Shown: positions 18,709 to 44,151, counted from the first letter of the stretch. The stretch is 64,000 nucleotides of DNA from Bacteroidota bacterium (GCA_029237775.1 JAQZBR010000006.1:194159-258158), one strand, 5' to 3'. A program made the numbers and translations. The notes: generated by a model from the letters alone, not told the origin.

Positions 18709-18752
18709 TTATATTATCTAATCCCACTAATTTGAAGTTATACATTAAATAT

Positions 18753-19307: not shown

Positions 19308-19328
19308 ATAAAAGTAAAAGCGTATAAA

Positions 19329-21851: not shown

Positions 21852-21917
21852 TGTGAATAATGCAAATCATCATTAGAGTTGTGTAACCGTTTCCGGTCCC
21901 TTTACAATCATCTTTGT
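21852..21917 (+). promoter_or_regulatory. Copy B of the conserved upstream element
   Basis: gTGTGAATaATGCAAatc...tgTGTAACcg...catcTTTGtatc, ~30 nt before ATG 21944. Confidence 0.4.
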
Positions 21918-21943
21918 ATCAAATTAAACTAATTATCGATAAC

Positions 21944-23914: not shown

Positions 23915-24036
23915 TATGAATAATGTAAATGATTAATAGAGTTATGTAATAGAAAAGGCTGTGATAAGATACACCTTTGTAACGTGAAATTTCACAACTG
24001 ACCGCCAGAAGCGGAAATAACAATAAGGATAAAATT

Positions 24037-24862: not shown

Positions 24863-24928
24863 TGTGAATCATGTAAGTTCTTTATGTAGTTGTGTAACAC
24901 ATTCGTCCATCTGTTGAAGCACCTTTGT
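24863..24928 (+). promoter_or_regulatory. Copy C of the conserved upstream element
   Basis: TGTGAATcATGTAAGttctttatgtagttgTGTAACac...caccTTTGtatc, ~35 nt before ATG 24964. Confidence 0.4.
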
Positions 24929-24963
24929 ATCGTGAAAATTAATTCACACCAAAAAATCTAAAA

Positions 24964-26643: not shown

Positions 26644-26708
26644 TGTGAATAATGCAAGTTATATGCTTAGTTCTGTAACATATCCGGAACTAAATAAAGG
26701 ACATTTGT
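26644..26708 (+). promoter_or_regulatory. Copy D of the conserved upstream element
   Basis: TGTGAATaATGCAAGtt...ttcTGTAACat...gacaTTTGttgc, ~35 nt before ATG 26743. Confidence 0.4.
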
Positions 26709-26742
26709 TGCTCAAATATTAATAATGATAAATCAATTTAAA

Positions 26743-29700
26743 ATGAAACGTAAAGCTCTCTTATTACTCACGGCCGCTATACTGCTCCTTCCGAAAATAA
26801 ACTTGGCTCAGGCTCCTGTTCTTGGAACAGCCGCTGATTTTGTGCTGTTTACTTCTGTTGGTGCATTAAGTAACACCGGCATATCGCAACTTACAGGAAA
26901 TGTAGGTTCCAACAGCGGTTCCAGTACCGGATTCGGAAACGTGAATGGTGTAATGCATAATAATAACGGTACTACTGCTGCTGCTGCTGCCGATCTTAAT
27001 CTGGGCTATAATCAGCTTAACAGTGCTATACCTACATTTTTTCCAGCCCCTTTGCTTGGTAACGGACAAACATTGAATGCAGGAGTTTATTCCATTTCAG
27101 GAGCATCAACGCTTAATCTTGATCTAACACTTGATGGACAGGGAAATCCTAATGCGATTTTCATTTTCCAGATTCAAGGACCTTTCTCTGCAAATGCCAA
27201 TGCAAAAGTAAAGTTGATAAATGACGCACAGGCCTGTAATGTGTTCTGGAAAGTAGAAGGACTTGTTAGTCTTGCTTCTGCCGTAACCATGAGAGGAACC
27301 ATTGTAGCAAACAATGCTGCAATTAATATGAGTACGAATGACACTCTTGAAGGCAGAGCCCTTTCAACTGCCGGGGCTATCACGATTGACGGAACTCTTG
27401 CTTATAAACCTATCGGTTGTGGAAGCGCTGTTTTAACAGGTCCATTAGCACCAACGCTGGGAGCTACAGCCTGTTACACTTTATTCACATCGATAGGTCC
27501 TGTTACTAATGCCGGTGTAACCAATGTTACCGGTGATATCGGAAGTGATAACGGAACAACTACGGGTTTTAATCCTTTGCTGGTGGTTGGTATGATTCAT
27601 GGAACTCCAGATGGTTCAACGGCTTTAGCTGCTTCTGACCTTATCAGCGTATATAATTATCTTAACGGGCTCCCTTACGATATTGAATTATTGTATCCCG
27701 CCCAATTCGGTAACAATCTGGTACTGACTCCACATACTTACCGGATGAATTCAGCTGCAACATTTACTGATACTTTGTATCTGAACGGAGAAGGAAATCC
27801 TAATGCTGTTTTTGTTATTCAAATCAACGGTGCACTTGCTACCAGTACCTATTCAAAAGTTAAACTGATCAATGGTACACAGGCGAAGAATGTTTTCTGG
27901 AAAGTAGAAGGTGCTGTAAGTATTAATGATTACTCTGTTTTCAGAGGAACCATCGTAGCTAATAATGGAGCTATAAGTATGACCACAGGGGTGTATCTTG
28001 ATGGAAGAGCATTAACAACAACAGGTGCAGTAAATACTGCAGCTATCACTGCTATTATGCCTCCGGGCTGCGGTGCTACTGCGACTTCTCCTGTTATTTC
28101 CCTTCAACCGAATGATCAGCTCGTATGTGCAGGTGATTCTGCCGGGTTTTCTGTAACAGCTGTCGGAACAGGCCTTTCATATCAATGGAGAAGAGGAACT
28201 GTTAATCTTGTGAACGGAGGAAATATTTCCGGAGCAACTTCTGCGGTGTTATCAATTAATCCGGTGTCGGCTGCCGATACAGCCTATAATTATAATGTAA
28301 TTGTGAGCGGAATGAGCTCACCTAATGATACTTCGGATAATGTTTCTCTTGGCATCACAAATGCTATTGCAATAACCTCGGAGCCTATGGGACAGACACT
28401 ATGCCCCGGAGACTCTGCATTTTTTACTGTTATGGCTCCTGGTTCAGGATTAACATATCAGTGGAGAAAAGGAAATGTTGACCTTATTAACGGAGGTAAT
28501 ATTTCGGGCGCAACTTCTGCCACTTTAACAATAGACCCTTCGTCAATAGCTGATACAGCTTTTAATTATAATGTAATTGTAACAGGGTCATGCGGAAGTG
28601 ATACATCAGTGTATGCTTTTTTAATGATCACCAATGGTGTAAGTATTACCTCTGAGCCAATGAATCAGATAAGCTGTCTTGGCAGCTCTGTAAGTTTTGC
28701 GACTGTTGCAAGCGGTTCAGGACTTACTTACCAGTGGAGAAAAGGGACAGTTAACATGGTCAATGCCGGAAATATTTCCGGTGTGAATACAGCAATGTTA
28801 TCTGTTAATCCTGTTACCGGTTCTGATGCGGCACTTAATTATAATGTTATCATTAACGGTTCATGCGTAAGTGATACATCAGTTAATGTTTCGTTAACGG
28901 TTGACAGTATCCGTATCACTACAGAGCCTTCAAATGAGTTTGTATGTATTGGAACACCTGCAAGCTTTTCAGCTGTTGCTGCAGGTTCCGGAATGTCATA
29001 CCAATGGAGAAAAGGTGCGGTTAATATGGTTAACGGAGGTAACATCTCCGGTGTGAACACGTCAGTTTTAACTATTAACCCTTCAACTATCTCTGATATT
29101 GCAACTAATTATAATCTTATAGTCACAGGAACTTGTGGGAATGATACTTCATTGAATGTTTCATTGAACATCGACAGTACACGTATAGTATCTGTGTCGC
29201 CAAATCAGTCTGTCTGTCTTGGAAACTCAATCGCTTTCTCTGTAAATGCACTCGGTTCAGGGCTTACTTACCAATGGAGGAAGGGTGCGGTTAATCTGGT
29301 TAACGGAGGTAATATCTCAGGTGCTACCACTTCGGTGTTAACTATTAACCCTGCAACAATCCTTGATAATGCAACCAATTACAATGTTATTGTTAGCGGT
29401 TCTTGTGGTAATGATACATCAGCAAATGTTACTCTTAATGTAGTAACGGCTCCTACAGCAACTGCCGGAAGTAATTCTCCGGTATGTACAGGAAGTGCTA
29501 TCAACCTTACCGCTGTAACTGTTTCAGGTGCCAATTACTCATGGTCGGGGCCGGCAGGATATTCATCTTCAACACAAAATCCTGTTATTCTTTCTGCATC
29601 ATTTTCTGATGCCGGCAACTATTCACTTACAGTGTCACAAGGTGGCTGTACTTCATTTCCTTCTGTAGTAGCAGTTGTTGTTAATAATTGTAATTCTGAT

Positions 29701-30330
29701 CTGAGTGTAATCAAATCGGTTAATACAGCAACGCCTTTCTTTGGAACACAAGTGACCTTTGTGATCACCGCAACCAATAATGGCAGTGGAACTGCAACAG
29801 GCGTAGTCGTAAATGATGTTCTTCAAAACGGGTATGTTTATGTTTCCTCTTCAGTAACTGCAGGTTCTTATGATGTACTGACAGGTGAATGGGTTGTCGG
29901 TAATATGATCGATAATTCAACTGAAACATTGACCATGACAGCAACTGTAGTTGAAGGTGGTAATTATGTTAACACGGCAATTATTTATGGAAATGAATCA
30001 GATCCTGATATGACAAATAATAATTCATCGGTGGAAACATTCCCAACCGATTTCTTTATCCCTGAAGGATTTTCTCCTAATGGTGATGGCATCAACGATC
30101 TTTTTGTGATCCGCGGGATCCGTAATTATCCGGAAAACACATTTGTGATCTTCAACCGTTGGGGTGATAAAGTTTTTGAGGCTAATCCATATACAAGTGA
30201 ATGGGATGGTAAATGTGGGAAGGGCTTAAGGCTCGGAGGTGAGCAGCTGCCTATCGGAACATATTTCTATATCCTTGACCTGGGTAATGATACTGACATC
30301 ATTAAAGGAACTATCTATCTGAACAAATAA
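26743..30330 (+). CDS. Large T9SS type-B cargo: two DUF3494 ice-binding-like domains, ~6 Ig-like repeats, DUF11, gliding-motility-associated C-terminal domain
   Basis: The N-terminal ~430 aa are ~70% identical to the 535-aa neighbour. Six ~95-aa repeats (..GSGLTYQWRKG(A/T)VN(L/M)VNGGNISG..NYNVI..GSCG.DTS). DUF11-like NSDLSVIKSVNTATPFFGTQVTFVITATNNGSGTATGVVVNDVL. C-terminus FFIPEGFSPNGDGINDLFVIRGI...WDG is a type B CTD. Start taken at MKRKALLLL (26743); the ORF-track start is 26725. Confidence 0.75.
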   Translation: MKRKALLLLTAAILLLPKINLAQAPVLGTAADFVLFTSVGALSNTGISQLTGNVGSNSGSSTGFGNVNGVMHNNNGTTAAAAADLNLGYNQLNSAIPTFFPAPLLGNGQTLNAGVYSISGASTLNLDLTLDGQGNPNAIFIFQIQGPFSANANAKVKLINDAQACNVFWKVEGLVSLASAVTMRGTIVANNAAINMSTNDTLEGRALSTAGAITIDGTLAYKPIGCGSAVLTGPLAPTLGATACYTLFTSIGPVTNAGVTNVTGDIGSDNGTTTGFNPLLVVGMIHGTPDGSTALAASDLISVYNYLNGLPYDIELLYPAQFGNNLVLTPHTYRMNSAATFTDTLYLNGEGNPNAVFVIQINGALATSTYSKVKLINGTQAKNVFWKVEGAVSINDYSVFRGTIVANNGAISMTTGVYLDGRALTTTGAVNTAAITAIMPPGCGATATSPVISLQPNDQLVCAGDSAGFSVTAVGTGLSYQWRRGTVNLVNGGNISGATSAVLSINPVSAADTAYNYNVIVSGMSSPNDTSDNVSLGITNAIAITSEPMGQTLCPGDSAFFTVMAPGSGLTYQWRKGNVDLINGGNISGATSATLTIDPSSIADTAFNYNVIVTGSCGSDTSVYAFLMITNGVSITSEPMNQISCLGSSVSFATVASGSGLTYQWRKGTVNMVNAGNISGVNTAMLSVNPVTGSDAALNYNVIINGSCVSDTSVNVSLTVDSIRITTEPSNEFVCIGTPASFSAVAAGSGMSYQWRKGAVNMVNGGNISGVNTSVLTINPSTISDIATNYNLIVTGTCGNDTSLNVSLNIDSTRIVSVSPNQSVCLGNSIAFSVNALGSGLTYQWRKGAVNLVNGGNISGATTSVLTINPATILDNATNYNVIVSGSCGNDTSANVTLNVVTAPTATAGSNSPVCTGSAINLTAVTVSGANYSWSGPAGYSSSTQNPVILSASFSDAGNYSLTVSQGGCTSFPSVVAVVVNNCNSDLSVIKSVNTATPFFGTQVTFVITATNNGSGTATGVVVNDVLQNGYVYVSSSVTAGSYDVLTGEWVVGNMIDNSTETLTMTATVVEGGNYVNTAIIYGNESDPDMTNNNSSVETFPTDFFIPEGFSPNGDGINDLFVIRGIRNYPENTFVIFNRWGDKVFEANPYTSEWDGKCGKGLRLGGEQLPIGTYFYILDLGNDTDIIKGTIYLNK

Positions 30331-30363
30331 CATCGATCTAATAACACAATTAAAATAAAGAAA

Positions 30364-31305
30364 ATGAAAACATTTAAAACAATAGGCATCGTGTTGATTT
30401 CGGCACTTGGCGGTATAACAGCCAATGCACAGCAAGCCCCGATGTACACTCATTACATGTATAACACACTTTCTGTAAACCCCGCATACGCAGGGAGCAG
30501 AGAAGCTCTGACTGTCACTGCCCTCCACCGTTCGCAGTGGGTTGATTTCAAAGGAGCTCCTGTTACACAAACCCTGACTCTTCATGCTCCTTTAAGAAAT
30601 GAGCATATTGGTGTCGGGCTGTCATTATCAAATGATAAAATTGGCCCCAATCACAATATTTCGGCTTTTGCAAACTTTGCGTACATAATGAAAGTTTCCG
30701 CAAAATCGAAGCTTGCCCTGGGATTGAGTGCTGGTGCCAATATCTTTCAATCAAATGTAAATTCGATTCAGTTGGAGGGACAGGAAACTGATCCTGTTTT
30801 TCAGACGAATATCAATAACCATGTGACACCTAATTTTGGTTTGGGTGCCTATTATTACAGGGAGCGGTTTTATGCGGGGATATCTGCACCAAATCTTCTT
30901 CAGAATAATTATTCAGTGATAAAGGTGGACGGAAACACTTTAATTGGTAAAGAGCAAAGACACTTTTTCCTGATTGCCGGGACTGTGATCCCTATTTCAA
31001 GCGACCTGGCTTTTAAACCGACAACACTCGTTAAAGTTACATCCGGTGCACCGGTTCAGGCTGATCTTACAGCATCTTTCGTTATCATGAAAAAACTTCT
31101 GATAGGTGCGATGTACCGCTCAGGTGATGCTTTCGGTGGACTGGTTGGTGTGGATATTACCGAACAATTTCATGTAGGTTATTCATACGATTGGTCTTAC
31201 GGATTAAAAACAGCCAAGTACAACCAGGGAAGTCATGAAATTGTATTAAGATACGATTTCATCTATCCAAGCAAGAAACAGATCCATTCACCCAGATATT
31301 TTTAA
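30364..31305 (+). CDS. PorP/SprF-family T9SS outer-membrane protein
   Basis: Signal peptide then QQAPMYTHYMYNTLSVNPAYAGSREALTVTALHRSQW (family motif). C-terminal ..HEIVLRYDFIY. It is a paralogue of the 5230..6114 gene. Confidence 0.8.
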   Translation: MKTFKTIGIVLISALGGITANAQQAPMYTHYMYNTLSVNPAYAGSREALTVTALHRSQWVDFKGAPVTQTLTLHAPLRNEHIGVGLSLSNDKIGPNHNISAFANFAYIMKVSAKSKLALGLSAGANIFQSNVNSIQLEGQETDPVFQTNINNHVTPNFGLGAYYYRERFYAGISAPNLLQNNYSVIKVDGNTLIGKEQRHFFLIAGTVIPISSDLAFKPTTLVKVTSGAPVQADLTASFVIMKKLLIGAMYRSGDAFGGLVGVDITEQFHVGYSYDWSYGLKTAKYNQGSHEIVLRYDFIYPSKKQIHSPRYF

Positions 31306-31323
31306 TACCATATAAGAAACAAA

Positions 31324-33261
31324 ATGAAGAAATTATATATACCATTAGTATTATTAACAGCGCTCTCCCTGAGTCTTAGCGCTCAGGAGAAATCACGGAA
31401 AGAACGTGAAGGTGATAAATATGCCTTTCGCTACTCTTTCGATAAAGCAATCGAATCGTATACTCATGCCAAGAATCTTAGTCCGGATGGGCAAAGAAGG
31501 CTCGCGGAAAGTTACAGTAAGATGGATCAGAATAAAGAAGCTGAAATCGTCTATGCAAAACTGATCGGTTCAGGCATCGGCCTCATTGCTGAAGATTATT
31601 ATAATTATGCAATGGTAATGAAAGCCAATGCGAAATATGATGAGGCTAATAAAACAATGGATAAATTCAGCGAGCAAAAGCCGGATGATCTGCGCGCAAA
31701 GAGTTATGCTGGTTCTAAAGCATCCTTTGCTGATTTGCTGAAAGATAATGGCAGCTTTAAAGTTGAAACCTTAAAGGTGAATACCGCTGCACAGGATTTC
31801 GGAACTTCTTTCTATAAAGACCAAATTGTATTCGCTTCCACAAGGTCAGCTGCCAAGATGGTTAAACGATCATATAACTGGAACGGTATGCCTTTCCTTA
31901 ATATGTTCGTTGCAGATAAGGATGGTACCCAGTTAAAAGATCCTAAAAGATTCGATAACAGCCTTAACGGTAAAATGCATGATGGCCCTGGCAGCTTTAG
32001 CAGAGATGCAACCTTTATGGCATACACTAAAAATCATTTTAAAGACAAAAGCAAAGATAAAGTCGTAGAGCTTCAGATTTGTTTCAGCACTTTCAGAGAC
32101 GGAAAATGGTCAGAGGAAGAGCCTTTTAATTATAATAATAATGAATATTCTGTAGGTCAGCCATTTCTGACTGAAGATGGTAATACAATGTACTTTACAA
32201 GTGATATGCCGGGCGGGTACGGAGGCAGTGACCTTTACAAAACCTCAAGAATGCCGGGTAGTGCATGGAACAAACCTGAAAATCTTGGCAATAGTATTAA
32301 CACTGAAGGGGATGAAATGTTTCCATTTGTGGAATCTGAAAAAGGTGTACTGTACTTCTCTTCCAATGGTTTATCCGGATTGGGCGGAACAGATATTTTT
32401 ACAAGTGTGATCACTAATGGTGGATATGGCTTACCTAAAAATTCGGGTAGCCCATTGAATACACAATACGATGATTTTGCATGTATCGTTGACAGCAAAA
32501 CACATAAAGGGTATTTTTCATCGAACAGGTCAGGCGGTAGCGGTGCTGACGATATTTACGGTGTTGAAGTTTTGAAGGTTGCTGATATTCAGAAGAGGAT
32601 CGAAGGCTTTGCACGAGACAGGAACTTAAAGGTTCTGGGCGGTGTATCAATAACACTTCTTGATGAATCGAATAAAGTACTGGATACAATTACTACTAAC
32701 GCGGATGGCTCATTCAGCTTCAAAGTTGCTTCGAATACCAATTATTTACTTACCGGTAAGAAAAAGAAATTCAATGACGGAAATAATGTTGCAAATACCA
32801 ATGGCAATGAAGCGGTTGTCAAAGCTGATGTCATCCTGCTCACTAAAGCGGAAGCCATTGCCTCTGAAATAAAGGAGGGAAAAGATCTCGCTGAACTTCT
32901 TGCTTTGAATACAATTTTCTTTGATTATGGAAAATCTGATATCCGTAAGGATGCGGAGCCTGATCTCGATAAGATCATTGAGATTATGAATGCGTATCCT
33001 GAAATGATTGTGGAATTTCGTTCATACACAGATTGCAGATCAACAAAAGAGTTTAATCAGTTATTATCAGAACGGAGAGCCAAAGCGTCTTCTGAATATG
33101 TAAGACAAAAGATCTCTAATCCTTCCAGGATCCATGGTAAAGGATATGGAGAACCTAAGCTCGCAAGTTTATGCCCTTGTGAAGGGCCTGTGCTTTCTGA
33201 ATGTTTAGAAGGTGAACACCAGAAGAACCGGAAAACAGAATTTATTATCGTTAAAAAATAA
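31324..33261 (+). CDS. PorE-like OmpA-family protein (TPR + PD40 propeller + CRD-like + OmpA_C)
   Basis: PD40 repeats (FTSDMPGGYGGSDLYKT.., FSSNGLSGLGGTDIFTS..), a CRD-like block (IEGFARDRNLKVLGGVSITLLDESNKVLDT), and OmpA_C (IFFDYGKSDIRKDAEPDLDKI...RSYTDCRS...SERRAKA). Confidence 0.7.
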   Translation: MKKLYIPLVLLTALSLSLSAQEKSRKEREGDKYAFRYSFDKAIESYTHAKNLSPDGQRRLAESYSKMDQNKEAEIVYAKLIGSGIGLIAEDYYNYAMVMKANAKYDEANKTMDKFSEQKPDDLRAKSYAGSKASFADLLKDNGSFKVETLKVNTAAQDFGTSFYKDQIVFASTRSAAKMVKRSYNWNGMPFLNMFVADKDGTQLKDPKRFDNSLNGKMHDGPGSFSRDATFMAYTKNHFKDKSKDKVVELQICFSTFRDGKWSEEEPFNYNNNEYSVGQPFLTEDGNTMYFTSDMPGGYGGSDLYKTSRMPGSAWNKPENLGNSINTEGDEMFPFVESEKGVLYFSSNGLSGLGGTDIFTSVITNGGYGLPKNSGSPLNTQYDDFACIVDSKTHKGYFSSNRSGGSGADDIYGVEVLKVADIQKRIEGFARDRNLKVLGGVSITLLDESNKVLDTITTNADGSFSFKVASNTNYLLTGKKKKFNDGNNVANTNGNEAVVKADVILLTKAEAIASEIKEGKDLAELLALNTIFFDYGKSDIRKDAEPDLDKIIEIMNAYPEMIVEFRSYTDCRSTKEFNQLLSERRAKASSEYVRQKISNPSRIHGKGYGEPKLASLCPCEGPVLSECLEGEHQKNRKTEFIIVKK

Positions 33262-33282
33262 AAATTCAATTTGAAATCAGAG

Positions 33283-33317
33283 CACCATCCCCAACAGGAT
33301 GGTGTTTTTGTTTTTAC
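33283..33317 (+). terminator. Rho-independent terminator
   Basis: caccatcc-ccaaca-ggatggtg followed by tttttgttttt. Confidence 0.55.
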
Positions 33318-33341: not shown

Positions 33342-33406
33342 TGTGAATTATATAACTCTTCTCTGAATTGTATAACATTTACAGGTGATAAAAGACTCAC
33401 TTTTGT
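33342..33406 (+). promoter_or_regulatory. Copy E of the conserved upstream element (degenerate: TATATAAC/TATAAC variants)
   Basis: tTGTGAATtATATAACtc...tTGTATAACat...tcacTTTTGtatc, ~40 nt before ATG 33448. Confidence 0.35.
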
Positions 33407-33447: not shown

Positions 33448-34053
33448 ATGAAATCAATAAGACTTATCATCGCATCTATTACCTTGCTTCTGGCAGGTTC
33501 ACTTCAAGCTCAGGTATCTGTTAACGTTAACATAGGATCGCCTCCGCAGTGGGGTCCGGCCGGGTACACTGATGTAAGATATTATTATTTGCCTGATGTG
33601 GAAGCATACTACGATGTCCAGTCGTCAATGTTCATCTATTTCGGTAATGGGATATGGATACACGAAAGATATCTTCCCGGTCCTTATCGCAATTATGATC
33701 TGTACGGAGGTTACAAAGTAGTAATGACAGATTACAGAGGCGACAGGCCATATGTGTATTTCGATGAATACAAAGTGAAATACAAAAAGGGATACAGAGG
33801 TAAGCCGCAAAAAAACATTGGACATAATCCCGGCAAAGGGAATTCTAATTCAGGTCACGGCCAGAAACATACTTCGAACCAGCAGCCGGGTAATAACGGC
33901 TCATCACATAAGGCAAACAATACTAAGCCTGCTAATAATCAACACCAGGAGAATCGTAAAGCAAGTCCTCAGCAAAATGGAGGGGGAGGCAATGATAAAT
34001 CTCACACCGGAGGAAAGCAAGGGGGCCATGGTGGCGGAGGTAAGAAAAAGTAG
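33448..34053 (+). CDS. Secreted protein with a ~110-aa Tyr/Pro-rich globular region and a Gly/His/Asn/Gln/Lys-rich disordered (hydrophilin- or dehydrin-like) tail
   Basis: Signal peptide MKSIRLIIASITLLLAGSLQAQ. C-terminal ~90 aa read ..GHNPGKGNSNSGHGQKHTSNQQPGNNGSSHKANNTKPANNQHQENRKASPQQNGGGGNDKSHTGGKQGGHGGGGKKK. Start moved to the internal ATG 33448 because the conserved promoter element lies inside the longer ORF-track call. Confidence 0.5.
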   Translation: MKSIRLIIASITLLLAGSLQAQVSVNVNIGSPPQWGPAGYTDVRYYYLPDVEAYYDVQSSMFIYFGNGIWIHERYLPGPYRNYDLYGGYKVVMTDYRGDRPYVYFDEYKVKYKKGYRGKPQKNIGHNPGKGNSNSGHGQKHTSNQQPGNNGSSHKANNTKPANNQHQENRKASPQQNGGGGNDKSHTGGKQGGHGGGGKKK

Positions 34054-34078
34054 CAGCGAAGGTGAATAAGAGTGAGTG

Positions 34079-34144
34079 TGTGAATCATGTAACATATTCA
34101 ATAAGTTCTGTAACACATCTGCATTCACGATAGTTCACCTTTGT
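34079..34144 (+). promoter_or_regulatory. Copy F of the conserved upstream element
   Basis: TGTGAATcATGTAACat...ttcTGTAACac...caccTTTGtcaa, ~40 nt before ATG 34184. Confidence 0.4.
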
Positions 34145-34183
34145 CAAAGTTAAATATTAAATCAGAATTTAAATTTTATAAAA

Positions 34184-34405
34184 ATGGAAGACAATACAAA
34201 AATCAAAGTTGATTGGGATGAAACAAAAGAGAAATTGAAGATGCAATTCAATAATCTGTCCTGTAATGACCTGCAGCAATTAGTTAACAAACAGGATGCG
34301 ATACTAGACAAGATCCAGCTAAAGATTGAAAAAACAAAAGAAGAGATCCAAAAACTTATTTCGGGGGATAGCTTTCCTGACATTATCATCAAGCCGATCA
34401 TTTAA
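34184..34405 (+). CDS. Small hydrophilic CsbD-like general-stress-type protein (hypothetical)
   Basis: 73 aa, highly charged, KVDWDETKEKLKMQFNNLSCNDLQ resembles the CsbD-family N-terminus (WDxxKGxxKQ..L.DDDL). Weak call. Confidence 0.35.
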   Translation: MEDNTKIKVDWDETKEKLKMQFNNLSCNDLQQLVNKQDAILDKIQLKIEKTKEEIQKLISGDSFPDIIIKPII

Positions 34406-34445
34406 AAACATTTAGAAACTTATAAACTTCAAAAAACTTAGAAAA

Positions 34446-35096
34446 ATGAAAAATAAATCCATAATTACCGCATTGTTCCTGTCTTGTGCAGCTATTGTAA
34501 ATGCACAGGAAAGTTCAAATGAAACCGATAACAGAGAAAAGCTGCAATTCGGAATAAAGGCAGGACTAAACTATTCAAATGTATATGATGAGAACAGTGA
34601 AGACTTCCGGGCTGATGCCAAATTTGGTGCTGCTGCCGGTGTTTCCCTCGCTATACCTTTCGGAAAATATCTTGGTTTGCAGCCTGAAGCTTTATTCTCT
34701 CAAAAAGGATTCAAGGGAAGCGGAATGATGCTTGGAAATGAATACAGTTTTACCCGCACCACGACTTATATTGATTTTCCTTTACAGTTAGCCTTTAAGC
34801 CGAGCGAGTTCTTTACTTTATTCGCAGGACCTCAGTATTCTTATCTGCTAAGTCAGCGCGATGTTTTTACGAATACATCTACCAGCTTTATACAGGAGAA
34901 TGAATTTAAGAATGATAACATCCGTAAAAACGTATTCGGTGCGGTAGGAGGATTGGATATCAATCTTAAGCATATCACATTGGGTGCAAGAGTAGGCTGT
35001 GATCTTCAAAACAATAATGGTGACGGAACATCCAGTACACCGCGTTATAAAAACGTATGGTTCCAGGGAACAGTAGGTTATGCTTTTTATAAATAA
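34446..35096 (+). CDS. Outer-membrane beta-barrel protein (OmpW/OmpA-like small barrel family)
   Basis: Signal peptide ..AAIVNAQ, alternating amphipathic strands, and a C-terminal ..WFQGTVGYAFYK aromatic terminus. Confidence 0.6.
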   Translation: MKNKSIITALFLSCAAIVNAQESSNETDNREKLQFGIKAGLNYSNVYDENSEDFRADAKFGAAAGVSLAIPFGKYLGLQPEALFSQKGFKGSGMMLGNEYSFTRTTTYIDFPLQLAFKPSEFFTLFAGPQYSYLLSQRDVFTNTSTSFIQENEFKNDNIRKNVFGAVGGLDINLKHITLGARVGCDLQNNNGDGTSSTPRYKNVWFQGTVGYAFYK

Positions 35097-35137
35097 CATA
35101 AAACATAAAACATAAACATAACATAAACACAAAAACA
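35095..35137. repeat. Short tandem repeat (CATAAAA/CATAAA)x~5
   Basis: aacataaaacataaaacataaacataacataaacacaaaaacac in the 44-bp gap between the two barrel genes. Confidence 0.5.
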
Positions 35138-35140
35138 CTT

Positions 35141-35719
35141 ATGAAAACAATATTTCTTTTAATTATACTATCCATTTCACTTTCCGCTGCAGTGAATGCT
35201 CAGGACAGACCCGCTCCTGAAAAGTATGGCAAAACCCTTAACCTTGGTGCGGGTGTTGGATATTACGGATATGTTGGGCATCCTTTACCAGTAGTGTCTA
35301 TGAACTTCGAATTTGACATAGCAAGAAATTTTACCCTTGCACCATTCATCGGAGCTTACACTTACAGGAACAGGTATTATTGGGGTAACCCGGGACAGCC
35401 TAAATATGACCCTTCATACAGATATTATTCATACCGCGTCACTGCGGTACCGGTCGGAATAAAAGGGACCTATTATTTTGATCAACTTTTTCATGCAAAT
35501 GAAAAATGGGATTTTTATGCAGCAGGCTCAGTAGGCTTTGTATTCAGGAGCGTTGTCTGGGATAACGATTACTATGGTGACAGGCATGTAAATCAAACCG
35601 CGAGTCCCTTATACCTGGATGCCCACGCAGGAGCTGAGTATCACTTCAGTACTAAAGCAGGCGTATTTCTTGACCTTTCTACAGGAGTGTCGACAATAGG
35701 AATTGCAATTCACTTTTAA
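35141..35719 (+). CDS. Outer-membrane beta-barrel protein (small porin-like)
   Basis: Signal peptide ..AAVNAQ, Tyr/Gly-rich strands, C-terminal ..IGIAIHF. Confidence 0.55.
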   Translation: MKTIFLLIILSISLSAAVNAQDRPAPEKYGKTLNLGAGVGYYGYVGHPLPVVSMNFEFDIARNFTLAPFIGAYTYRNRYYWGNPGQPKYDPSYRYYSYRVTAVPVGIKGTYYFDQLFHANEKWDFYAAGSVGFVFRSVVWDNDYYGDRHVNQTASPLYLDAHAGAEYHFSTKAGVFLDLSTGVSTIGIAIHF

Positions 35720-35732
35720 CATTAAACAAACT

Positions 35733-35924
35733 ATGAAAAAATTTAGAATCATTGCTGCTTTTGCATGCAGTATAATATTAATTGGATATTCATCCTGCCT
35801 GGTCGTAGTACCACATGGATCAAACAGTGGTAGTAAAAAAGGCTGGAACAAGAATTCAAATAACCCACATCATCCGAATACTACTAATCCGGGTCACACA
35901 AAACAAAAAAATAAGAATAAATAA
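35733..35924 (+). CDS. Small secreted/lipoprotein-like hypothetical protein with a basic Asn/His/Lys-rich tail
   Basis: MKKFRIIAAFACSIILIGYSSC... followed by GSNSGSKKGWNKNSNNPHHPNTTNPGHTKQKNKNK. Confidence 0.3.
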   Translation: MKKFRIIAAFACSIILIGYSSCLVVVPHGSNSGSKKGWNKNSNNPHHPNTTNPGHTKQKNKNK

Positions 35925-35947
35925 ACACAAAAAAACAACATACAAAA

Positions 35948-36100
35948 ATGGGAAACTTACTTTACACGATCGCAGTTATTCTTGTTGTTATCTGGGCCAT
36001 TGGGTACCTCGGATTTCAGACTGGCGGAATCATTCACATCCTGCTTGTAATTGCTGTCATTGCTGTGCTTTTTAGAGTAATAAGAGGCAATAGATTATAA
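35948..36100 (+). CDS. lmo0937-family small membrane protein (50 aa), absent from the ORF track
   Basis: Codon-by-codon translation gives MGNLLYTIAVILVVIWAIGYLGFQTGGIIHILLVIAVIAVLFRVIRGNRL*: two TM helices around a GGxIH motif and an RG(R/N) tail, as in the lmo0937/NF033488-type ~50-aa family. Confidence 0.55.
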   Translation: MGNLLYTIAVILVVIWAIGYLGFQTGGIIHILLVIAVIAVLFRVIRGNRL

Positions 36101-36159
36101 TTTAATTTATTAAAAAAGGATGTGTGACAGATACTGTTGCGCATCCTTTGTTTTTTCAC

Positions 36160-37320
36160 ATGAGCTTAAAACTATTTGTTATTTTAATTTCTCTGGTAGT
36201 AAATTTATCGGCCGCTCTTTACGGACAGGAGAACCCAGGGTCTGGTAAATCACCTTCCCGGGTAAGTGAAATTCCTCACCGAACCCCACGTGAATTATGG
36301 ATGTGGCCACACCGTGGGTTTGCCATGATCAGTACTCGTGAGCGAAAGATCAACTACGATACTGCTTATATTAAATCGTTCTATAAAAGGATTGTAATCA
36401 CAGTACCGGTGTCTACGCGTTTTTTAAAATTCACTCTCTCGGATCAGAAGACGGGAAATAAGTTAACCTTCGTGCCGAACCTTCAATATAATCTCGGCTT
36501 ATGTGTGAGCTCAAGATGGGCAAGTTTTATTTTGAATTCGGGAGTCAAGGTGCTTACAGGAGATTCAGTTAAAAAGGGAAAGACAACCTATCGTGATTAT
36601 CAGCTTCATCTGTATGGAAGGAAAATCAATACAGATTTGTTTGTACAGCAGTATAAAGGGTTTTATATCAGAAACTCTCAAACTTACTCTGCATACACAG
36701 GCGATAAGCCATACTCGGTCCGATCTGACGTTAAAGCTTTGAATATCGGTGCCAGCTCAGTATATGTAGTTAATCACAGAAGATTTTCTTACGGTAATGC
36801 ATTCGCCTTTGTTGAACAGCAGAAAAAAAGTGCAGGCTCACTCCTAATAGGAGTATATTATACCTATTTCGCTGCAAGCGGAGATCAATCAATGGTACAA
36901 CAACCTTTCAGGAACAGCTTTGATACCCTCTCCATAATTAAAAAAGGATATTCTCATAATGCAGGGTTGAATATCGGTTATATATATACAAGAGTGTTTT
37001 TTAAAAAATGGTACGCGACTGCATGTGTGACGCAAGGGGTAGGTGGTGAGAGCTCGGTTTATACAAGAGACGATAACACTCGTTATTCCCAGTTCTCCGC
37101 AGGTGCCGGAAAGTTAAGTGCTAGCTTCACATTCCGATATGACAATACCCGTTATTTCATAGGAACCATGGGTATGTTTGATGCCTTTCTTTTCAGAGGA
37201 AAAGTGAATTCGACATTTGATTATAGTTTTGGTAAGCTTATGATGTATGCAGGATATAGGTTCTCAGTTCTTAAAGCTGAAAAGAGGATATTGAGGAAGC
37301 TGAAGCTGATCGATTATTGA
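36160..37320 (+). CDS. Hypothetical secreted protein, possibly a beta-barrel OMP
   Basis: Signal peptide MSLKLFVILISLVVNLSAALYGQ, rich in Tyr/Gly/Ser alternations. The ORF-track start 36124 is a GTG, so the ATG at 36160 was preferred. Confidence 0.45.
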   Translation: MSLKLFVILISLVVNLSAALYGQENPGSGKSPSRVSEIPHRTPRELWMWPHRGFAMISTRERKINYDTAYIKSFYKRIVITVPVSTRFLKFTLSDQKTGNKLTFVPNLQYNLGLCVSSRWASFILNSGVKVLTGDSVKKGKTTYRDYQLHLYGRKINTDLFVQQYKGFYIRNSQTYSAYTGDKPYSVRSDVKALNIGASSVYVVNHRRFSYGNAFAFVEQQKKSAGSLLIGVYYTYFAASGDQSMVQQPFRNSFDTLSIIKKGYSHNAGLNIGYIYTRVFFKKWYATACVTQGVGGESSVYTRDDNTRYSQFSAGAGKLSASFTFRYDNTRYFIGTMGMFDAFLFRGKVNSTFDYSFGKLMMYAGYRFSVLKAEKRILRKLKLIDY

Positions 37321-37333
37321 ATCCGGATTAACC

Positions 37334-37385
37334 TGTGAATCATGTAAGAAATTTGCAGGATGCTGTAACAGGATACCTCCTTTGT
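37334..37385 (+). promoter_or_regulatory. Copy G of the conserved upstream element (short-spacer variant)
   Basis: TGTGAATcATGTAAGaa...tgcTGTAACagg...ctccTTTGttatc, ~45 nt before ATG 37429. Confidence 0.4.
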
Positions 37386-37428
37386 TATCTCATATTTGCA
37401 GAACATAATCAATATAAAAACAGCTATC

Positions 37429-37707
37429 ATGAGCAAGGAAAAGATATTATTTGGTGTATTGGCGGGAGCCGCTGCAGGAATGTTATTGGGGGTGCTGTTT
37501 GCGCCTGACAAAGGTTCAGAAACCAGAAAGAAGATCACGAAAAAAGGCCTGGATACGGCAGAAGATATTAAAGAAAAGATCGAAGATCTGCTTGAGAGCT
37601 TTTCAGAAACGTTAGAAACAGTGAAGCAGGATGCCTCGGCTCTCTATTCCGAAAAGAAAAGCTCCGCAGAAGATATTAATAGCAATCTAAACAAATCCGT
37701 CAACTAA
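37429..37707 (+). CDS. YtxH-domain protein (LEA-like general stress protein family)
   Basis: MSKEKILFGVLAGAAAGMLLGVLFAPDKGSETRKKITKKG: a glycine-zipper TM helix + APxKGxETR + charged helical tail, the YtxH signature. Start at the internal ATG. Confidence 0.6.
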   Translation: MSKEKILFGVLAGAAAGMLLGVLFAPDKGSETRKKITKKGLDTAEDIKEKIEDLLESFSETLETVKQDASALYSEKKSSAEDINSNLNKSVN

Positions 37708-38066
37708 TGCAGGATCAAAAGAATCAAATAGAGATCCTTGCTGAAAATGCTGAAATGTATGCGAAGACAAGCATCGATCTTCTAAAGCTGCAGGCTGTTG
37801 AAAAGACAGCTCTGGTAGGTTCTGCGGCTGTATCCCGCGGAGTCGTTATATTGATGATTTCCATGTTTATAATAATTGTAAACATTGCAGTCGGACTTTG
37901 GCTTGGCGACATTCTTGGAAAACTATACTATGGTTTCTTTTGTGTTGCAGGGTTTTATGGGCTTTTTGCATTTGTCATCTATTTCTTCTTCCATAACAGG
38001 ATCAAGGAGCGGGTGAGCAATTCTATTATTTCACAATTGCTTAACTGGTTTCCATGCATAAAATAA
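37707..38066 (+). CDS. Holin-X-like (putative holin superfamily III-type) small membrane protein
   Basis: 119 aa with an amphipathic N-terminal helix and two TM helices (VVILMISMFIIIVNIAVGLWLG / FFCVAGFYGLFAFVIYFFF). Its start overlaps the YtxH stop (TAATG). Confidence 0.45.
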   Translation: MQDQKNQIEILAENAEMYAKTSIDLLKLQAVEKTALVGSAAVSRGVVILMISMFIIIVNIAVGLWLGDILGKLYYGFFCVAGFYGLFAFVIYFFFHNRIKERVSNSIISQLLNWFPCIK

Positions 38067-38455
38067 ATACGACAATTGAATTGAAAAGTGCGATTGAAGT
38101 TCTTAGAATTCAGCAGAAAGAACGCGGATTGGAATTGAAAGTTCAGTTGAAAACTACTTTTGATAGCCTCAAGCCGGCCAACCTTATTAAAAGCACCATT
38201 ACGGATCTTGTTTCAGATTCGGAAATCAAAGGAAATTTTCTTGGTAAAGCATTGGGCTTTAGTGCAGGTTTCTTTTCAAAGAAATTATTAGTTGGTGCAA
38301 GTATGAATCCAGTTGTGAGTATTCTTGGTACTGTGTTACAAATGGGCATTAGCAGATTTGTAGCAAATAACGGTGAAAAAATAAAGGAAAAAGGGTTAAG
38401 CTTTATAAAAAATCTTCTAAGTAAAAAAAATCCAAAAGGCCAAAATGAAATCTGA
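38054..38455 (+). CDS. Hypothetical protein (third member of the YtxH/holin-like cluster)
   Basis: 133 aa with no recognised domain. Its start overlaps the upstream stop. Confidence 0.4.
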   Translation: MHKINTTIELKSAIEVLRIQQKERGLELKVQLKTTFDSLKPANLIKSTITDLVSDSEIKGNFLGKALGFSAGFFSKKLLVGASMNPVVSILGTVLQMGISRFVANNGEKIKEKGLSFIKNLLSKKNPKGQNEI

Positions 38456-39539
38456 TCTTAAATTTCCTTTCTATGCAAAGGCTTCTCTTGTATTTATAGG
38501 GCTCTTTTCATTTATCAGTATGTTATACATTGCACGGTCAATTATTGTCCCGGTGATTTATTCGGTTATCATTGCAATTGTCCTGACGCCTGTGGTAGAT
38601 TTTTTTGTCAAAAGAAAACTTAACCGGGTACTTGCTATCGGAATGACTCTGGCCCTTCTGATCATATTTACTATTGCCGCCATTGTATTATTATCATCAC
38701 AAATGATGGTGTTCAGTGATACTTTTCCAGACCTGGTCAGGAAGTTTCACGAACTGACAGCGCAAAGTATCGCATGGGTGTCTGAAAATTTTAATATCAG
38801 TACACGGAAGATAAATACATGGCTGGCAGAAAAGAATAAGTCAGCTATGACCGGGGCCGGTGCAGCACTTAATCAAACATTGATTAATACAGGAGGTGTG
38901 CTCATCATTTTGGTATTGATTCCGGTTTACACATTTATGATACTTTTTTATCAGCCATTGCTTATAGCGTTTATTCACAAGCTTTTTAAGGCTGTTCATA
39001 AGGATGAAGTTAATGCAGTGCTTGCTGCAACTAAAAAAATCATCCGGAGTTATCTCATTGGATTGCTGATCGAAGCGGCTATTATAGCAATACTCAATTG
39101 CAGCGCCTTGCTGATACTAGGAATAGATTATGCGATCTTACTTGGTGTTATCGGTGCTATGGTGAATGTTATTCCTTATATAGGCGGATTTATTGCTGTA
39201 GCATTACCAATGATCATAGCTTTAACAACAAAATCTCCTGCTGCAGCACTCTCGGTTTTTGGCGTTTATGTAATAATTCAGTTCATCGATAATCATTACA
39301 TTATTCCTAAAGTGGTTGCATCAAAAGTGCAGATCAATGCTCTTATGTCGATAGTTGTAGTGCTATGCGGTGGCGCTCTTTGGGGAGTGCCGGGGATGTT
39401 CCTTTCAATTCCGCTGATTGCTATTCTCAAGGTAATCTTCGATCATATTGAACCTTTGAAGCCCTGGGGATATCTCCTGGGTGATAGTATGCCGCCATTA
39501 TTGGGGAAGTACTCGCCTTTTAAAAAAGTAACCAATTAA
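38445..39539 (+). CDS. AI-2E family transporter (UPF0118/PerM-like permease)
   Basis: ~8 TM helices with motifs ..ARSIIVPVIYSVIIAIVLTPVVDFF.. and ..GVPGMFLSIPLIAILKVIFDH.. typical of AI-2E/PerM. Confidence 0.75.
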   Translation: MKSDLKFPFYAKASLVFIGLFSFISMLYIARSIIVPVIYSVIIAIVLTPVVDFFVKRKLNRVLAIGMTLALLIIFTIAAIVLLSSQMMVFSDTFPDLVRKFHELTAQSIAWVSENFNISTRKINTWLAEKNKSAMTGAGAALNQTLINTGGVLIILVLIPVYTFMILFYQPLLIAFIHKLFKAVHKDEVNAVLAATKKIIRSYLIGLLIEAAIIAILNCSALLILGIDYAILLGVIGAMVNVIPYIGGFIAVALPMIIALTTKSPAAALSVFGVYVIIQFIDNHYIIPKVVASKVQINALMSIVVVLCGGALWGVPGMFLSIPLIAILKVIFDHIEPLKPWGYLLGDSMPPLLGKYSPFKKVTN

Positions 39540-39552: not shown

Positions 39553-39789
39553 ATGAAAAAAGTAGCAATTATCCTGTTTGCAGCATTAACATGCGGATTT
39601 ATGTCTTGCAGGAAAGACCGTGTATGTACCTGTACATATAATAAAGTCGGTTCTTCCAGCATTGAAACACAAATAACCACTTACGATAAAGTGACGAAGA
39701 AGTCTGCCTTGGCAACATGTTCTTCCGGGACAAGTTATAATCAGTCTGATCCTTCGAATACGGAGACGCGTACCTGCACTTTAAAATAA
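39553..39789 (+). CDS. Small Cys-rich lipoprotein (hypothetical)
   Basis: MKKVAIILFAALTCGFMSC lipobox-like signal. 78 aa. Confidence 0.4.
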   Translation: MKKVAIILFAALTCGFMSCRKDRVCTCTYNKVGSSSIETQITTYDKVTKKSALATCSSGTSYNQSDPSNTETRTCTLK

Positions 39790-39810: not shown

Positions 39811-39843
39811 AACACCACGAAATTTCGTGGTGTTCTTTTTTTT
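39811..39843 (+). terminator. Rho-independent terminator (perfect hairpin aacaccacgaaa/tttcgtggtgtt followed by a T9 run)
   Basis: Perfect palindromic stem followed by cttttttttt. Confidence 0.6.
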
Positions 39844-39935: not shown

Positions 39936-40499
39936 ATGTCATTCTTTTCTTATCTATCCTCGCTGATCCATGTTTCAGACTCGCTAAAGGCGGAGCTCCT
40001 TTCTATTACGGAGGAGTTGAATGTTGGTCGCAACGAACCAATCGTTGAGATCAATAATCGTTGCAACGATCTTTTTTTTATTGAGAAAGGTTTAGTCAGG
40101 GGCTTTTATTATGAAGGCGGTAAGGAGATCACAAATTGGTTTGCGCAGGAAGGTGAATTCGCAACCTGCTTTTATTCGTTTATTGCAATCAAACCTGCAT
40201 TTGAGACTATTGAAGCACTTGAAGATTCTATCCTGATAAGGATTCCTCATGCCGGCCTTGAGAAATTGTATCTGAAATTTCCTGAAACTGAACGTGTCGG
40301 AAGAATTATTACGGAAGCATACTACATTAAGCTGGAAGAGCGTTTGTTGAGCTTACAGTTTAAAAACGCCAAAGAAAGATATCAGAATTTTGTTTTATCA
40401 AAGCCATCGTTGTTGCAGCGGGCTTCGCTCGGACAAATAGCATCCTACCTTGGGATTACTCAGGAAACCCTGAGTCGGATCAGAGCAGGCTCTCACTAG
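39936..40499 (+). CDS. Crp/Fnr-family transcriptional regulator
   Basis: cNMP-binding beta-roll (..FFIEKGLVRGFYYEGGKEIT..) and a C-terminal HTH RASLGQIASYLGITQETLSRIR. Confidence 0.75.
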   Translation: MSFFSYLSSLIHVSDSLKAELLSITEELNVGRNEPIVEINNRCNDLFFIEKGLVRGFYYEGGKEITNWFAQEGEFATCFYSFIAIKPAFETIEALEDSILIRIPHAGLEKLYLKFPETERVGRIITEAYYIKLEERLLSLQFKNAKERYQNFVLSKPSLLQRASLGQIASYLGITQETLSRIRAGSH

Positions 40500-43452: not shown

Positions 43453-44151
43453 CTAAGCGGGCACATTAAAGATAAAGCCGACACCAAAAACATTTCCAAT
43501 CGAAAGGTCTGCATCTTCCTTCAGGTATTTTCTGATCTTGGTTATGAAGACATCGAGGCTTCTTCCTGCGAAGTAATCATTCTCTCCCCACAGTTCTTTT
43601 AACATGTCTTCTCGTTTTATTAAAATATTCCGGTGGTCACAAAGATACTTCAGGATGCCGGCTTCCTTTTCAGTAATTCTCCTGGCTTTATGATTCAGTA
43701 CTAACAACTGCTGATCGAAGTCGAAGATGAATTTTCCAATTGAAATGATCTCTTGCTTACTTTCTATCTTTTGTTCCGGGATTCTACGTATGATCGCCTT
43801 TATTTTCCAGAGCAGCTCTTCTTCGTCAAACGGTTTGGTAATGTAATCATCTGCACCAAGGTCGTACCCTTTTAATTTATCCGGCTTTAAGGAACGTGCA
43901 GTAATAAATATTATGGGTATCTTTTTATTTGTTGCCCTTATCTCCCTGGCTAGTGAGAACCCATCCAACTTCGGCATCATAACATCCAGCAAACATAATT
44001 CAAATGGTTGTGATTGAAAGATCTTCAAAGCAATTTCTCCGTCTTTACAAAGTTTGACTGCAAAGCCTTCAGTCTCGAGATAATCAACTAAAAGTACACC
44101 CAGGTTAAGGTCATCTTCAGCCAGTAATATGCCGGGTTTGGGTTTAATCAT
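43453..44151 (-). CDS. OmpR-family response regulator (receiver + winged-helix)
   Basis: ILLAEDDLNLG...LCLLDVMMPKLDG receiver and a C-terminal trans_reg_C (..RRITEKEAGILKYL...VFGVGFIF). Confidence 0.85.
   Translation of the reverse strand: MIKPKPGILLAEDDLNLGVLLVDYLETEGFAVKLCKDGEIALKIFQSQPFELCLLDVMMPKLDGFSLAREIRATNKKIPIIFITARSLKPDKLKGYDLGADDYITKPFDEEELLWKIKAIIRRIPEQKIESKQEIISIGKFIFDFDQQLLVLNHKARRITEKEAGILKYLCDHRNILIKREDMLKELWGENDYFAGRSLDVFITKIRKYLKEDADLSIGNVFGVGFIFNVPA

Follow-up and report, generated by a model that had tools for sequence, protein, structure and literature searches.

A promoter module that recurs across Bacteroidota and a candidate AraC-type regulator of a putative stress/envelope regulon

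Results

A co-oriented run of small envelope and stress-type genes

We analysed a 64,000-nt stretch of DNA from a Bacteroidota bacterium (GCA_029237775.1, JAQZBR010000006.1:194159-258158; hereafter the window, whose numbering is used throughout). A first-pass annotation had described positions 33448-38455 as an island of small stress and envelope proteins. The + strand of this segment carries ten co-oriented genes (g1-g10), and its last operon runs on to 39789, through an eleventh gene (g11) for an AI-2E transporter and a small lipoprotein open reading frame (ORF). Our subject is a 64-nt promoter module that precedes three transcription units here and recurs in other Bacteroidota genomes, together with an AraC-like protein encoded upstream that may be its activator. 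The features of the segment and its borders are as follows.

33279-33308, + strand: terminator-like hairpin with T-run, closing the preceding IBP-PorP-OmpA unit (IBP, ice-binding protein)
33448-34053, + strand: g1, 201-aa secreted protein with signal peptide
34184-34405, + strand: g2, 73-aa protein, divergent member of the CsbD family by profile comparison
34446-35096, + strand: g3, small outer membrane (OM) beta-barrel, OMP_b-brl_2
35141-35719, + strand: g4, probable small OM beta-barrel
35733-35924, + strand: g5, lipoprotein-like protein of 63 aa; tail basic and rich in N/K/H/P
35948-36100, + strand: g6, 50-aa lmo0937/DUF5670 membrane protein
36115-36149, + strand: terminator-like hairpin (16 pairs) with T-run between g6 and g7, a few nt 5' of the g7 ATG
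36160-37320, + strand: g7, 386-aa DUF4421 protein with signal peptide
37429-37707, + strand: g8, YtxH protein
37707-38066, + strand: g9, probable PF07332 (YqjE-type) membrane protein
38054-38455, + strand: g10, 133-aa conserved partner protein, no family assigned
38445-39539, + strand: g11, AI-2E family transporter (E 6e-51)
39553-39789, + strand: 78-aa Cys-rich lipoprotein-like ORF, followed by a terminator-like hairpin at 39811-39834

All the small genes named in the first-pass annotation exist on the + strand where it had placed them, and gene calls in the segment agree with JGI's own for the 1.86-Mb source contig (metagenome 3300045996, contig Ga0456371_00000003) except for g1, which JGI starts elsewhere (222 aa). 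The Bacteroidetes origin it had proposed also holds, as the proteins are those of an NCBI "Bacteroidota bacterium" metagenome-assembled genome (MAG; K0Q95_2799 to K0Q95_2802). Its inventory of the 5 kb was incomplete, having overlooked the DUF4421 gene g7, the AI-2E gene g11 and the 78-aa ORF.

The genes form three transcription units: g1 alone; g2-g6, continuing into g7 past the internal hairpin; and g8-g11 with the small lipoprotein ORF. The hairpins at 33279-33308 and 39811-39834 flank these units on either side. The third unit is tightly packed, with the g8 stop and g9 start overlapping as TAATG and g9 and g10 by 13 nt, both as first annotated, and with g10 and g11 overlapping by 11 nt. 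The hairpin at 36115-36149 is a likely attenuation point within the g2-g7 unit. Because it precedes the g7 ATG, g7 would need read-through and is probably expressed below g2-g6.

Proteins encoded by g1-g7

The description of g1 as a hydrophilin-like protein with a low-complexity tail agrees with its composition and predicted structure. A Tyr-rich conserved N-domain leads into an 89-aa G/K/N/Q/H tail (residues 113-201). The mature protein contains 16.8% Gly with a grand average of hydropathy (GRAVY) of -1.33, the tail 23.6% Gly with a GRAVY of -2.12, and g1 passes the Garay-Arroyo hydrophilin thresholds (Gly > 6%, hydrophilicity index > 1), which concern composition only. In an AlphaFold model with a predicted local distance difference test score (pLDDT) of 59 overall, just a small beta core is confident, and the tail (pLDDT about 50 or below) is predicted to be disordered. 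The 3143 database relatives of g1 are all "hypothetical" and none has a Pfam domain; judged by these relatives, g1 is a member of a large uncharacterised Bacteroidota family. Family-library searches of the window proteins gave no match for g1, g4, g5 or g10.

The CsbD-like identity first given to g2 was recovered by an indirect route. A direct search with PF05532 gave no match at E <= 0.1 (gathering score 40 bits), and the sole family-library match was PRK10428 (E 0.002, 18 bits versus a cut-off of 113), whereas the profile of a Bacteroidota CsbD-like cluster aligned with residues 4-60 of g2 at 47.7 bits (E 6e-17). That cluster comprises 11 sequences of ~61 aa, and its median member passes PF05532 with 50.2 bits. 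By this comparison g2 is a divergent CsbD protein in which conserved Gly residues have been lost.

Two small OM barrels had been proposed. The first, g3, matches OMP_b-brl_2 (PF13568) directly (82.2 bits, cut-off 27; E 6e-23). The second, g4, has a signal peptide and a C-terminal Phe but no direct Pfam match; it has 1664 relatives, PF13568 is found in three of its top 120 homologues, and it is probably a small OM barrel as well. The tail of the lipoprotein-like g5 has a pI of 10.4. The lmo0937-type assignment of g6 is borne out by NF033488 (65.4 bits, cut-off 30) and DUF5670 (PF18919; 50 bits, cut-off 23.5), and the protein has two hydrophobic segments. The signal-peptide-bearing g7 matches DUF4421 with E 1.8e-49.

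A promoter module with eight copies in the window

The first-pass annotation had noticed an element shared by three promoters, and these are the sites at 33342, 34079 and 37334. The regions upstream of g1, g2 and g8 have in common the core TGTGAATnATGTAA, for which the window has 12 matches where 2.7 would be expected. The complete module spans 64 nt: a 15-nt box TGTGAATnATGTAAC, 13 nt, TnTGTAAC, 21 nt and [C/T]AnCTTTG. An alignment of all good window matches gives CAnCTTTG for the last box.

A profile built solely from sites in foreign genomes finds exactly eight copies in the window (E 4e-15 to 2e-5; next best E 0.81), at 18644, 21852, 23915, 24863, 26644, 33342, 34079 and 37334. All lie on the + strand, each 81-122 nt 5' of the ATG of a + strand gene. 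The copies are confined to 18.6-37.4 kb, with none in the remaining 43 kb. Chance falls far short of explaining the occurrence of the element. The units that they head, and the modules of the three units introduced above, are these:

18644-21771, + strand: candidate regulator unit, with module (18644-18707), AraC-like gene (18756-19307), hybrid kinase gene (19329-21353) and REC-only gene (21337-21771)
21852-23914, + strand: module and OmpA/PD40/TPR protein (ATG at 21944)
23915-24795, + strand: module and 252-aa DUF3494 ice-binding-like protein
24863-26571, + strand: module and double DUF3494 protein with a type IX secretion system (T9SS) sorting domain; GTGAAAATTAATTCAC at the predicted start site
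26644-33261, + strand: module, 1201-aa DUF3494/Ig/CHU_C surface protein, PorP/SprF and 645-aa OmpA-family protein
33342-33405, + strand: g1 module, TGTGAATTATATAAC; second box GTATAAC, 1 nt closer; -7 box CACTTTTG at 33398-33405; E 1.7e-7
34079-34143, + strand: g2-operon module, perfect core; -7 box CACCTTTG at 34136-34143; E 3e-13
37334-37398, + strand: YtxH-operon module; -7 box CATATTTG at 37391-37398; E 2.4e-8

The 5-kb cluster is thus the distal third of a 21-kb block (18.6-39.8 kb) of eight units with the same promoter and not a self-contained island. The block encodes three DUF3494 proteins, two of them with T9SS sorting domains. The stress/envelope reading first given is supported in that the same families stand behind the module in many other Bacteroidota, beside Usp, BON, YceI, CbpA/CbpM and CsbD.

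An Rfam scan of 18-40 kb returned nothing relevant. We also considered the module as an RNA hairpin and rejected this, as its inverted repeat lacks pairing covariation (C-G 31 versus C-A 36). Together these two results indicate that the module acts as DNA.

A separate palindrome, GTGAAAATTnATTCAC, accompanies 39 of 425 module sites (L001-L202 and the window copy at 24932-24947). It sits at a nearly constant ~69 nt (64-72) from the module start, ~5 nt past the -7 box, which is the predicted +1. The genes behind it encode IBP, CsbD, barrel, cupin and small secreted proteins. Among its variants, the G.U-compatible GTGGA/TTCAC occurs five times, the compensated GTGGA/TCCAC once and GTGAA/TCCAC never, and this pattern gives a hint of an mRNA hairpin at the 5' end and not of an operator.

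The module across Bacteroidota

An exact-pattern scan of a 596-Gb collection, with one genome kept per species, returned at least 120 loci; the locus, site and family counts for motif loci refer to the 120 among the matches listed. By our own arithmetic, ~36 matches would be expected by chance over the whole collection, all phyla together. The listed loci are nearly all from Bacteroidota (Bacteroidales, Chitinophagales, Saprospiraceae, Cytophagales, Flavobacteriales and Sphingobacteriales), and a few carry generic labels ("bacterium", "uncultured bacterium", "metagenome", "FCB group"). By label, two fall outside the phylum, one Chlorobiales MAG (L011) and one Syntrophales MAG (L094). The former lacks the -7 box; in the latter a perfect module stands together with a DUF3494 homologue, a finding suggestive of contamination in binning or of transfer.

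Positions that the search had left unspecified are conserved in 141 sites (A at -39, 0.90; T at -21, 0.82; A at -11, 0.84; TT at -9/-8, 0.85/0.82), and conservation outside the search pattern reaches 80-99%. In the same sites [C/T]AnCTTTG stands at a fixed offset (A 0.89, TTT 0.99/0.97/0.79, G 0.66). This downstream box agrees with TAnnTTTG, the consensus that PMC9723704 quotes for the sigma-A -7 element of Bacteroidota, and the proximal TGTAAC occupies the place expected for the -33 element. A co-oriented ORF follows 133 of 144 sites, the median distance from module start to ATG being 102 nt, with 112 of the 133 at 80-150 nt.

Every gene of the g1-g11 set except g7 has homologues in motif loci of other genomes: g6 in 18, g11 in 13, g2 in 12, g3 in 11, g8 in 10, g9 in eight, g10 in seven, g5 in four, g1 in two and g4 in one. 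For g7 (DUF4421), no homologue was found in the 120 loci. A family-enrichment table covering all ORFs of these loci is headed by kinases and receivers (35 loci), DUF3494 (26), OmpA/glycine-zipper proteins (24) and the AraC-like protein (24). These are followed by a 107-aa secreted protein (14), OMP_b-brl_2 barrels (14), a small cupin (13), MlaE/F/D (10-11), AI-2E (11), YtxH (10) and Usp (10). Rarer families include CbpA/CbpM, YceI, BON, CsbD, DUF6600 and M48 peptidase.

Some of this cargo has features of its own. DUF6600 proteins recur as the first gene behind the module (L001 at 1884-3089, L018, L040 and others) and are built, like g1, of a globular N-domain and a very long low-complexity tail, here rich in Q/P/A; a secreted folded head with a disordered hydrophilic tail may thus be a theme of the regulon. 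A GH130-like phosphorylase is encoded in seven and a 748-aa GT4 glycosyltransferase in six module loci (L010, L049, L081 and others), possibly for making compatible solutes or glycans. In 11 module loci there is a P-type ATPase whose N-terminus is rich in His/Lys/Glu.

An AraC-like protein as candidate regulator

The first module copy of the window precedes the gene for a 183-aa AraC-like protein (start at 18756, MVSARCK...) that is 78-88% identical across orders. Matches to HTH_18 (E 3.4e-17) and HTH_AraC (E 2.8e-7) place a domain of two helix-turn-helix (HTH) motifs at its C-terminus. The predicted structure consists of a small alpha/beta N-domain, a linker helix and an AraC/MarA-type two-HTH domain at pLDDT around 90. 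Foldseek matches to this model were AraT, YesN, MarA, SoxS and Rob; the fold search matched only AraC-type DNA-binding domains and nothing for the N-domain.

The next gene encodes a soluble hybrid kinase with the domain order PAS-HisKA-HATPase-REC. A C-terminus resembling a histidine phosphotransfer (HPt) domain was read by eye from the translation and is reported by no Pfam model. We also considered this kinase as a LOV photoreceptor and rejected the idea, as by eye its PAS domain has no NCRFLQ-type motif.

In a reverse test, 80 metagenome loci were fetched with the AraC-like protein alone, and 73 had enough upstream sequence to be evaluated. The module stands 113-142 nt upstream on the same strand in 60 of these 73. 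The fetched loci hold 186 sites in 696 kb. In each of the 29 loci that reach 10 kb a site is present, and the typical number is 4-7. Kinase orthologues follow the AraC-like gene in 46 loci and receiver orthologues in 39, and 12 of 13 DUF3494 genes in this regulator-anchored set lie directly behind a site. In motif-anchored loci, AraC-like genes of ~72-79% identity with a detected site have it about 131-136 nt upstream in four loci; in two more the distance is 240 and 346 nt.

Among the regulators of the window, the AraC-like protein is the one that co-localises with the module elsewhere: it is present in 23 of the 120 listed loci, against 0/120 for the others, namely the OmpR-type pair, three Crp/Fnr proteins, MarR, ArsR and two PP2C sensors. 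Two other binders had been entertained and were set aside on this count. The direct repeats had suggested a LytTR- or OmpR-type protein, and the OmpR-type pair of the window does not accompany the motif in the listed loci; a TGTGA motif had suggested the Crp/Fnr neighbour at 39936, which does not co-localise in motif loci.

A second AraC-like subfamily, at 55-64% identity, is encoded in several motif loci (L029 at 1-700, L099, L111, L042, L035 and others), and the L029 copy adjoins a 79%-identical one. It may act in the same system as a paralogous regulator.

Other regulators surround the block. Three paralogous Crp/Fnr-type regulators, of the cyclic-nucleotide-binding (cNMP-binding) kind, are encoded at 39936-40499, 47435-48043 (- strand) and 48764-49327 (- strand), within 10 kb downstream of the island. 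An OmpR-type two-component pair lies at 43453-45388 and a lone PAS protein at 46814-47350, both on the - strand. Just upstream of the island are two large SpoIIE/PP2C phosphatase sensors (8681-11872 and 13285-15390), of which one has Reg_prop/Y_Y_Y domains and the other TPR repeats; in other phyla, partner-switching stress pathways are driven by this type of domain. Further upstream, at 1970-7679, a 1085-aa CHU_C T9SS cargo protein is encoded with a PorP/SprF and an OmpA-family protein and has no module copy. Its PorP/SprF is 36% identical to that at 30364-31305, and the trio is a paralogous surface-protein cassette outside the regulon.

Discussion

A putative regulon driven by a transcription factor

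We consider it probable that the module marks a phylum-wide stress/envelope regulon activated by a putative, autoregulated AraC-type factor. The housekeeping sigma-A holoenzyme would read the -7 box. Because the promoter has no -33 element, TGTAAC sitting in its place, an activator would be needed, and it would bind, at about -75 to -38, two direct-repeat boxes ~21 bp apart, of which the proximal overlaps -33. Such a geometry would correspond to class II activation as in AraC/XylS/RhaS. The proposed activator is the 183-aa AraC-like protein (18756-19307), and since its own gene carries the module, positive autoregulation would follow. The co-transcribed PAS hybrid kinase and REC-only protein would gate it by phosphorelay upon a stress signal.

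The output would be protective envelope and cytoplasmic proteins made during growth arrest or under water, cold or osmotic stress. In the window these would be the periplasmic or secreted hydrophilin-like g1, the CsbD-like g2, the small OM barrels, the basic-tailed lipoprotein, the lmo0937 protein, the inner-membrane set of YtxH, YqjE-like protein and g10, and the AI-2E transporter, with T9SS-displayed ice-binding-like proteins elsewhere in the island. In function such a regulon would be akin to the general stress regulons of sigma-B and sigma-S, with a transcription factor and not an alternative sigma as its driver.

A broader proposal is that the general stress response of Bacteroidota is run by this module with the AraC-type activator, the PAS hybrid kinase and the receiver, the window island being its local core. 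This we hold tentatively, leaning slightly against it. General stress regulons have a dedicated alternative sigma among their marks, and here the -7 box is of the sigma-A type and no sigma gene is associated.

Several points weigh against the proposed regulon. The stress function is read from family names and from parallels with other phyla, and for most of the effector proteins we know of no organism in which a biochemical function has been demonstrated. The link of the AraC-like protein to the module is guilt by association; its 55-64%-identity relatives in motif loci have no detectable upstream site, and it has no receiver domain through which the REC-only partner could act. The first base of the -7 box is C about as often as T, leaving room for a specialised sigma. 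Cold or peat environments are the source of many motif loci, and the most frequent cargo is DUF3494, so the signal may be cold or freezing and not general stress.

Alternative readings

The last of these points leads to the main biological rival, in which the regulon would be specific to cold, freezing or ice and the small proteins would be accessories to ice-binding proteins. We judge this unlikely. It would account for the frequency of DUF3494 (26/120 listed loci) and its position directly behind the site (12/13 in the regulator-anchored set), and for the many source MAGs from glacier-fed streams, permafrost fens and Antarctic samples. However, the module is also found in MAGs from lakes, ponds, biofilms and sediments, and Usp, CbpA/CbpM, YceI, BON, Mla and CsbD are not specific to cold. 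Membership in DUF3494 is no proof of ice binding, and the sensor of the kinase is a plain cytoplasmic PAS domain.

The main mechanistic rival, which we regard as somewhat more doubtful still, is a promoter for an alternative sigma (ECF-type, for extracytoplasmic function, or other). TGTAAC would then be its -35 and AnCTTTG its -10 element, and the AraC-like/kinase operon would be just a member of the regulon. TGTAAC does have the position of a -35 element and is similar to those of ECF promoters, which contain AAC, and the first base of the -7 box departs from the TA consensus in ~38% of sites. Against this, the downstream box fits the sigma-A -7 consensus, with TTT at 0.99/0.97/0.79, and a sigma factor would leave unexplained the equally conserved 15-nt box 21 nt further upstream. 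Moreover, no sigma-factor family is enriched in the 120 listed loci, a small sigma-like ORF occurring in only three.

It is very improbable that these are unremarkable, constitutive envelope genes and the element a strong variant of the housekeeping promoter. Most members do lack a proven function, but the element is limited to eight promoters in 21 kb with none in the other 43 kb of the window, and the module lacks a -33 element. It is also tied to the signalling operon in 60/73 independent loci, and the same stress-type families stand behind it across orders.

The YtxH operon and its E. coli parallel

The YtxH assignment of g8 passes the curated threshold (67.1 bits in a PF12732 profile search, cut-off 37.5). 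Its hydrophobic segment, residues 4-27, forms an N-terminal membrane anchor, and the rest is charged and helical (GRAVY -1.08). The protein that had been labelled "holin-like", g9, has two hydrophobic segments but is not a phage holin. The protein scores 23.4 bits against PF07332 (Phage_holin_3_6; E 6.7e-5), below the cut-off of 28.4, while eight of the nine members of its family match that model (best E 1e-8). By these family matches g9 is probably of the YqjE type, and the phage label is a naming artefact. For g10, no Pfam, NCBIfam or PDB relative was found. The gene is syntenic in 7-8 motif loci among the matches listed, and the order YtxH-PF07332-g10-AI-2E recurs in motif loci of other genomes.

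That g8-g10 could be a prophage-derived holin/lysis cassette, as the weak match of g9 to Phage_holin_3_6 might suggest, is scarcely credible, given that PF07332 also contains the chromosomal YqjE of E. coli (75.8 bits), that g8-g10 match no PHROG phage protein family, that no phage genes lie in their neighbourhood and that they are kept beside the AI-2E transporter across many genomes.

The closest studied parallel of g8-g9-g10 is E. coli yqjD-yqjE-yqjK, and the likeness is one of architecture only. Both are sets of three packed or overlapping genes for an anchored charged helical protein, a PF07332-type protein with two transmembrane segments and, third, a small protein. YqjD hibernates ribosomes while tethered to the membrane; its production is under RpoS control and its yqjE/yqjK neighbours are conserved (bioRxiv 10.1101/2024.08.16.608256). 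ElaB and YgaM are grouped with YqjD as membrane-tethered ribosome-hibernation factors. The Pseudomonas homologues PA3040-3042 belong to the envelope stress response (PMC11302039). Unlike YqjD, g8 is a YtxH protein with an N-terminal anchor and not a DUF883 protein with a C-tail anchor. The AI-2E transporter joined to the g8-g10 operon has no counterpart in yqjDEK, and g10 has no detectable relation to YqjK; we had tried it as a YqjK relative and dropped the idea at an hhalign probability of 0.2.

Comparison with known regulatory systems

By analogy, the gene content of the motif loci parallels that of the sigma-B and sigma-S regulons. Both csbD and ytxH belong to the sigma-B regulon. In Bacillus and Listeria this regulon (csbD, ytxGHJ, lmo0937) likewise brings CsbD, YtxH and lmo0937/DUF5670 proteins under one dedicated promoter type, and its regulator operon is autoregulated, as we propose here. 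In Listeria, lmo0937 was down-regulated by an inhibitor of sigma-B (PMC3225968). Unlike sigma-B promoters, however, the module keeps a sigma-A-type -7 box and upstream repeat boxes, and no RsbV/W-type partner-switching genes are attached to it here. The hosts differ as well, being Gram-negative Bacteroidota in which many members are OM barrels, lipoproteins and T9SS cargo.

The two-HTH AraC-type domain is shared with the class II activators AraC/XylS/RhaS/MelR and with the monomeric MarA/SoxS/Rob. The sites also resemble those of class II activators, with XylS and AraC site geometry as the reference, in being asymmetric 15-nt boxes in direct repeat ~21 bp apart, the proximal one overlapping -35/-33. 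In contrast to AraC/XylS types, the protein is no longer than 183 aa. Its N-domain is a small alpha/beta one, it lacks both a ligand-binding cupin and a receiver domain, and its partners are a hybrid kinase and a receiver that is a protein of its own. An identity of 78-88% across a phylum is unusual for members of the AraC family.

The hybrid two-component systems (HTCS) of Bacteroides unite the same modules, histidine kinase, receiver and AraC-type HTH, in one polypeptide, whereas here they are split over three proteins. Among the sequences that the DNA-binding half of the AraC-like protein matches most closely is PDB entry 12aw ("hybrid two-component system protein"). Where HTCS have a periplasmic sugar sensor, the kinase here is soluble and senses through a PAS domain, and the predicted targets are stress/envelope genes and not polysaccharide utilisation loci. 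The PhyR-NepR-EcfG system of Alphaproteobacteria is a phylum-level, autoregulated and phosphorelay-gated stress regulon with a promoter signature and CsbD-type genes. The proposed regulon would resemble it in these traits, but has no sigma/anti-sigma pair and would use an AraC-type output factor.

Implications for Bacteroidota

In the literature we found no description of the motif or the regulon, subscription journals being poorly covered, and the motif is absent from the promoter atlas of F. psychrophilum. The promoter module and its regulator thus appear to be undescribed, while the proteins are additions to families already known or uncharacterised. To our knowledge, Bacteroidota lack RpoS, SigB and EcfG. 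There is a substantial chance that this regulon represents their missing general stress response.

How Bacteroidota, an abundant phylum living in soils, waters and guts, coordinate protection against starvation, drying, freezing and osmotic stress is poorly understood. If the proposed regulon is real, it would be a counterpart, based on a transcription factor, of the sigma-based stress responses of other phyla. With a promoter signature and a candidate master regulator in hand, its members could be predicted from any genomic or metagenomic sequence. It would also provide a physiological context for hundreds of "hypothetical" small proteins, among them the g1 family (> 3000 members), g10, DUF4421, DUF6600 and many DUF3494 proteins, and the reading of "ice-binding" DUF3494 genes in non-polar Bacteroidota would change.

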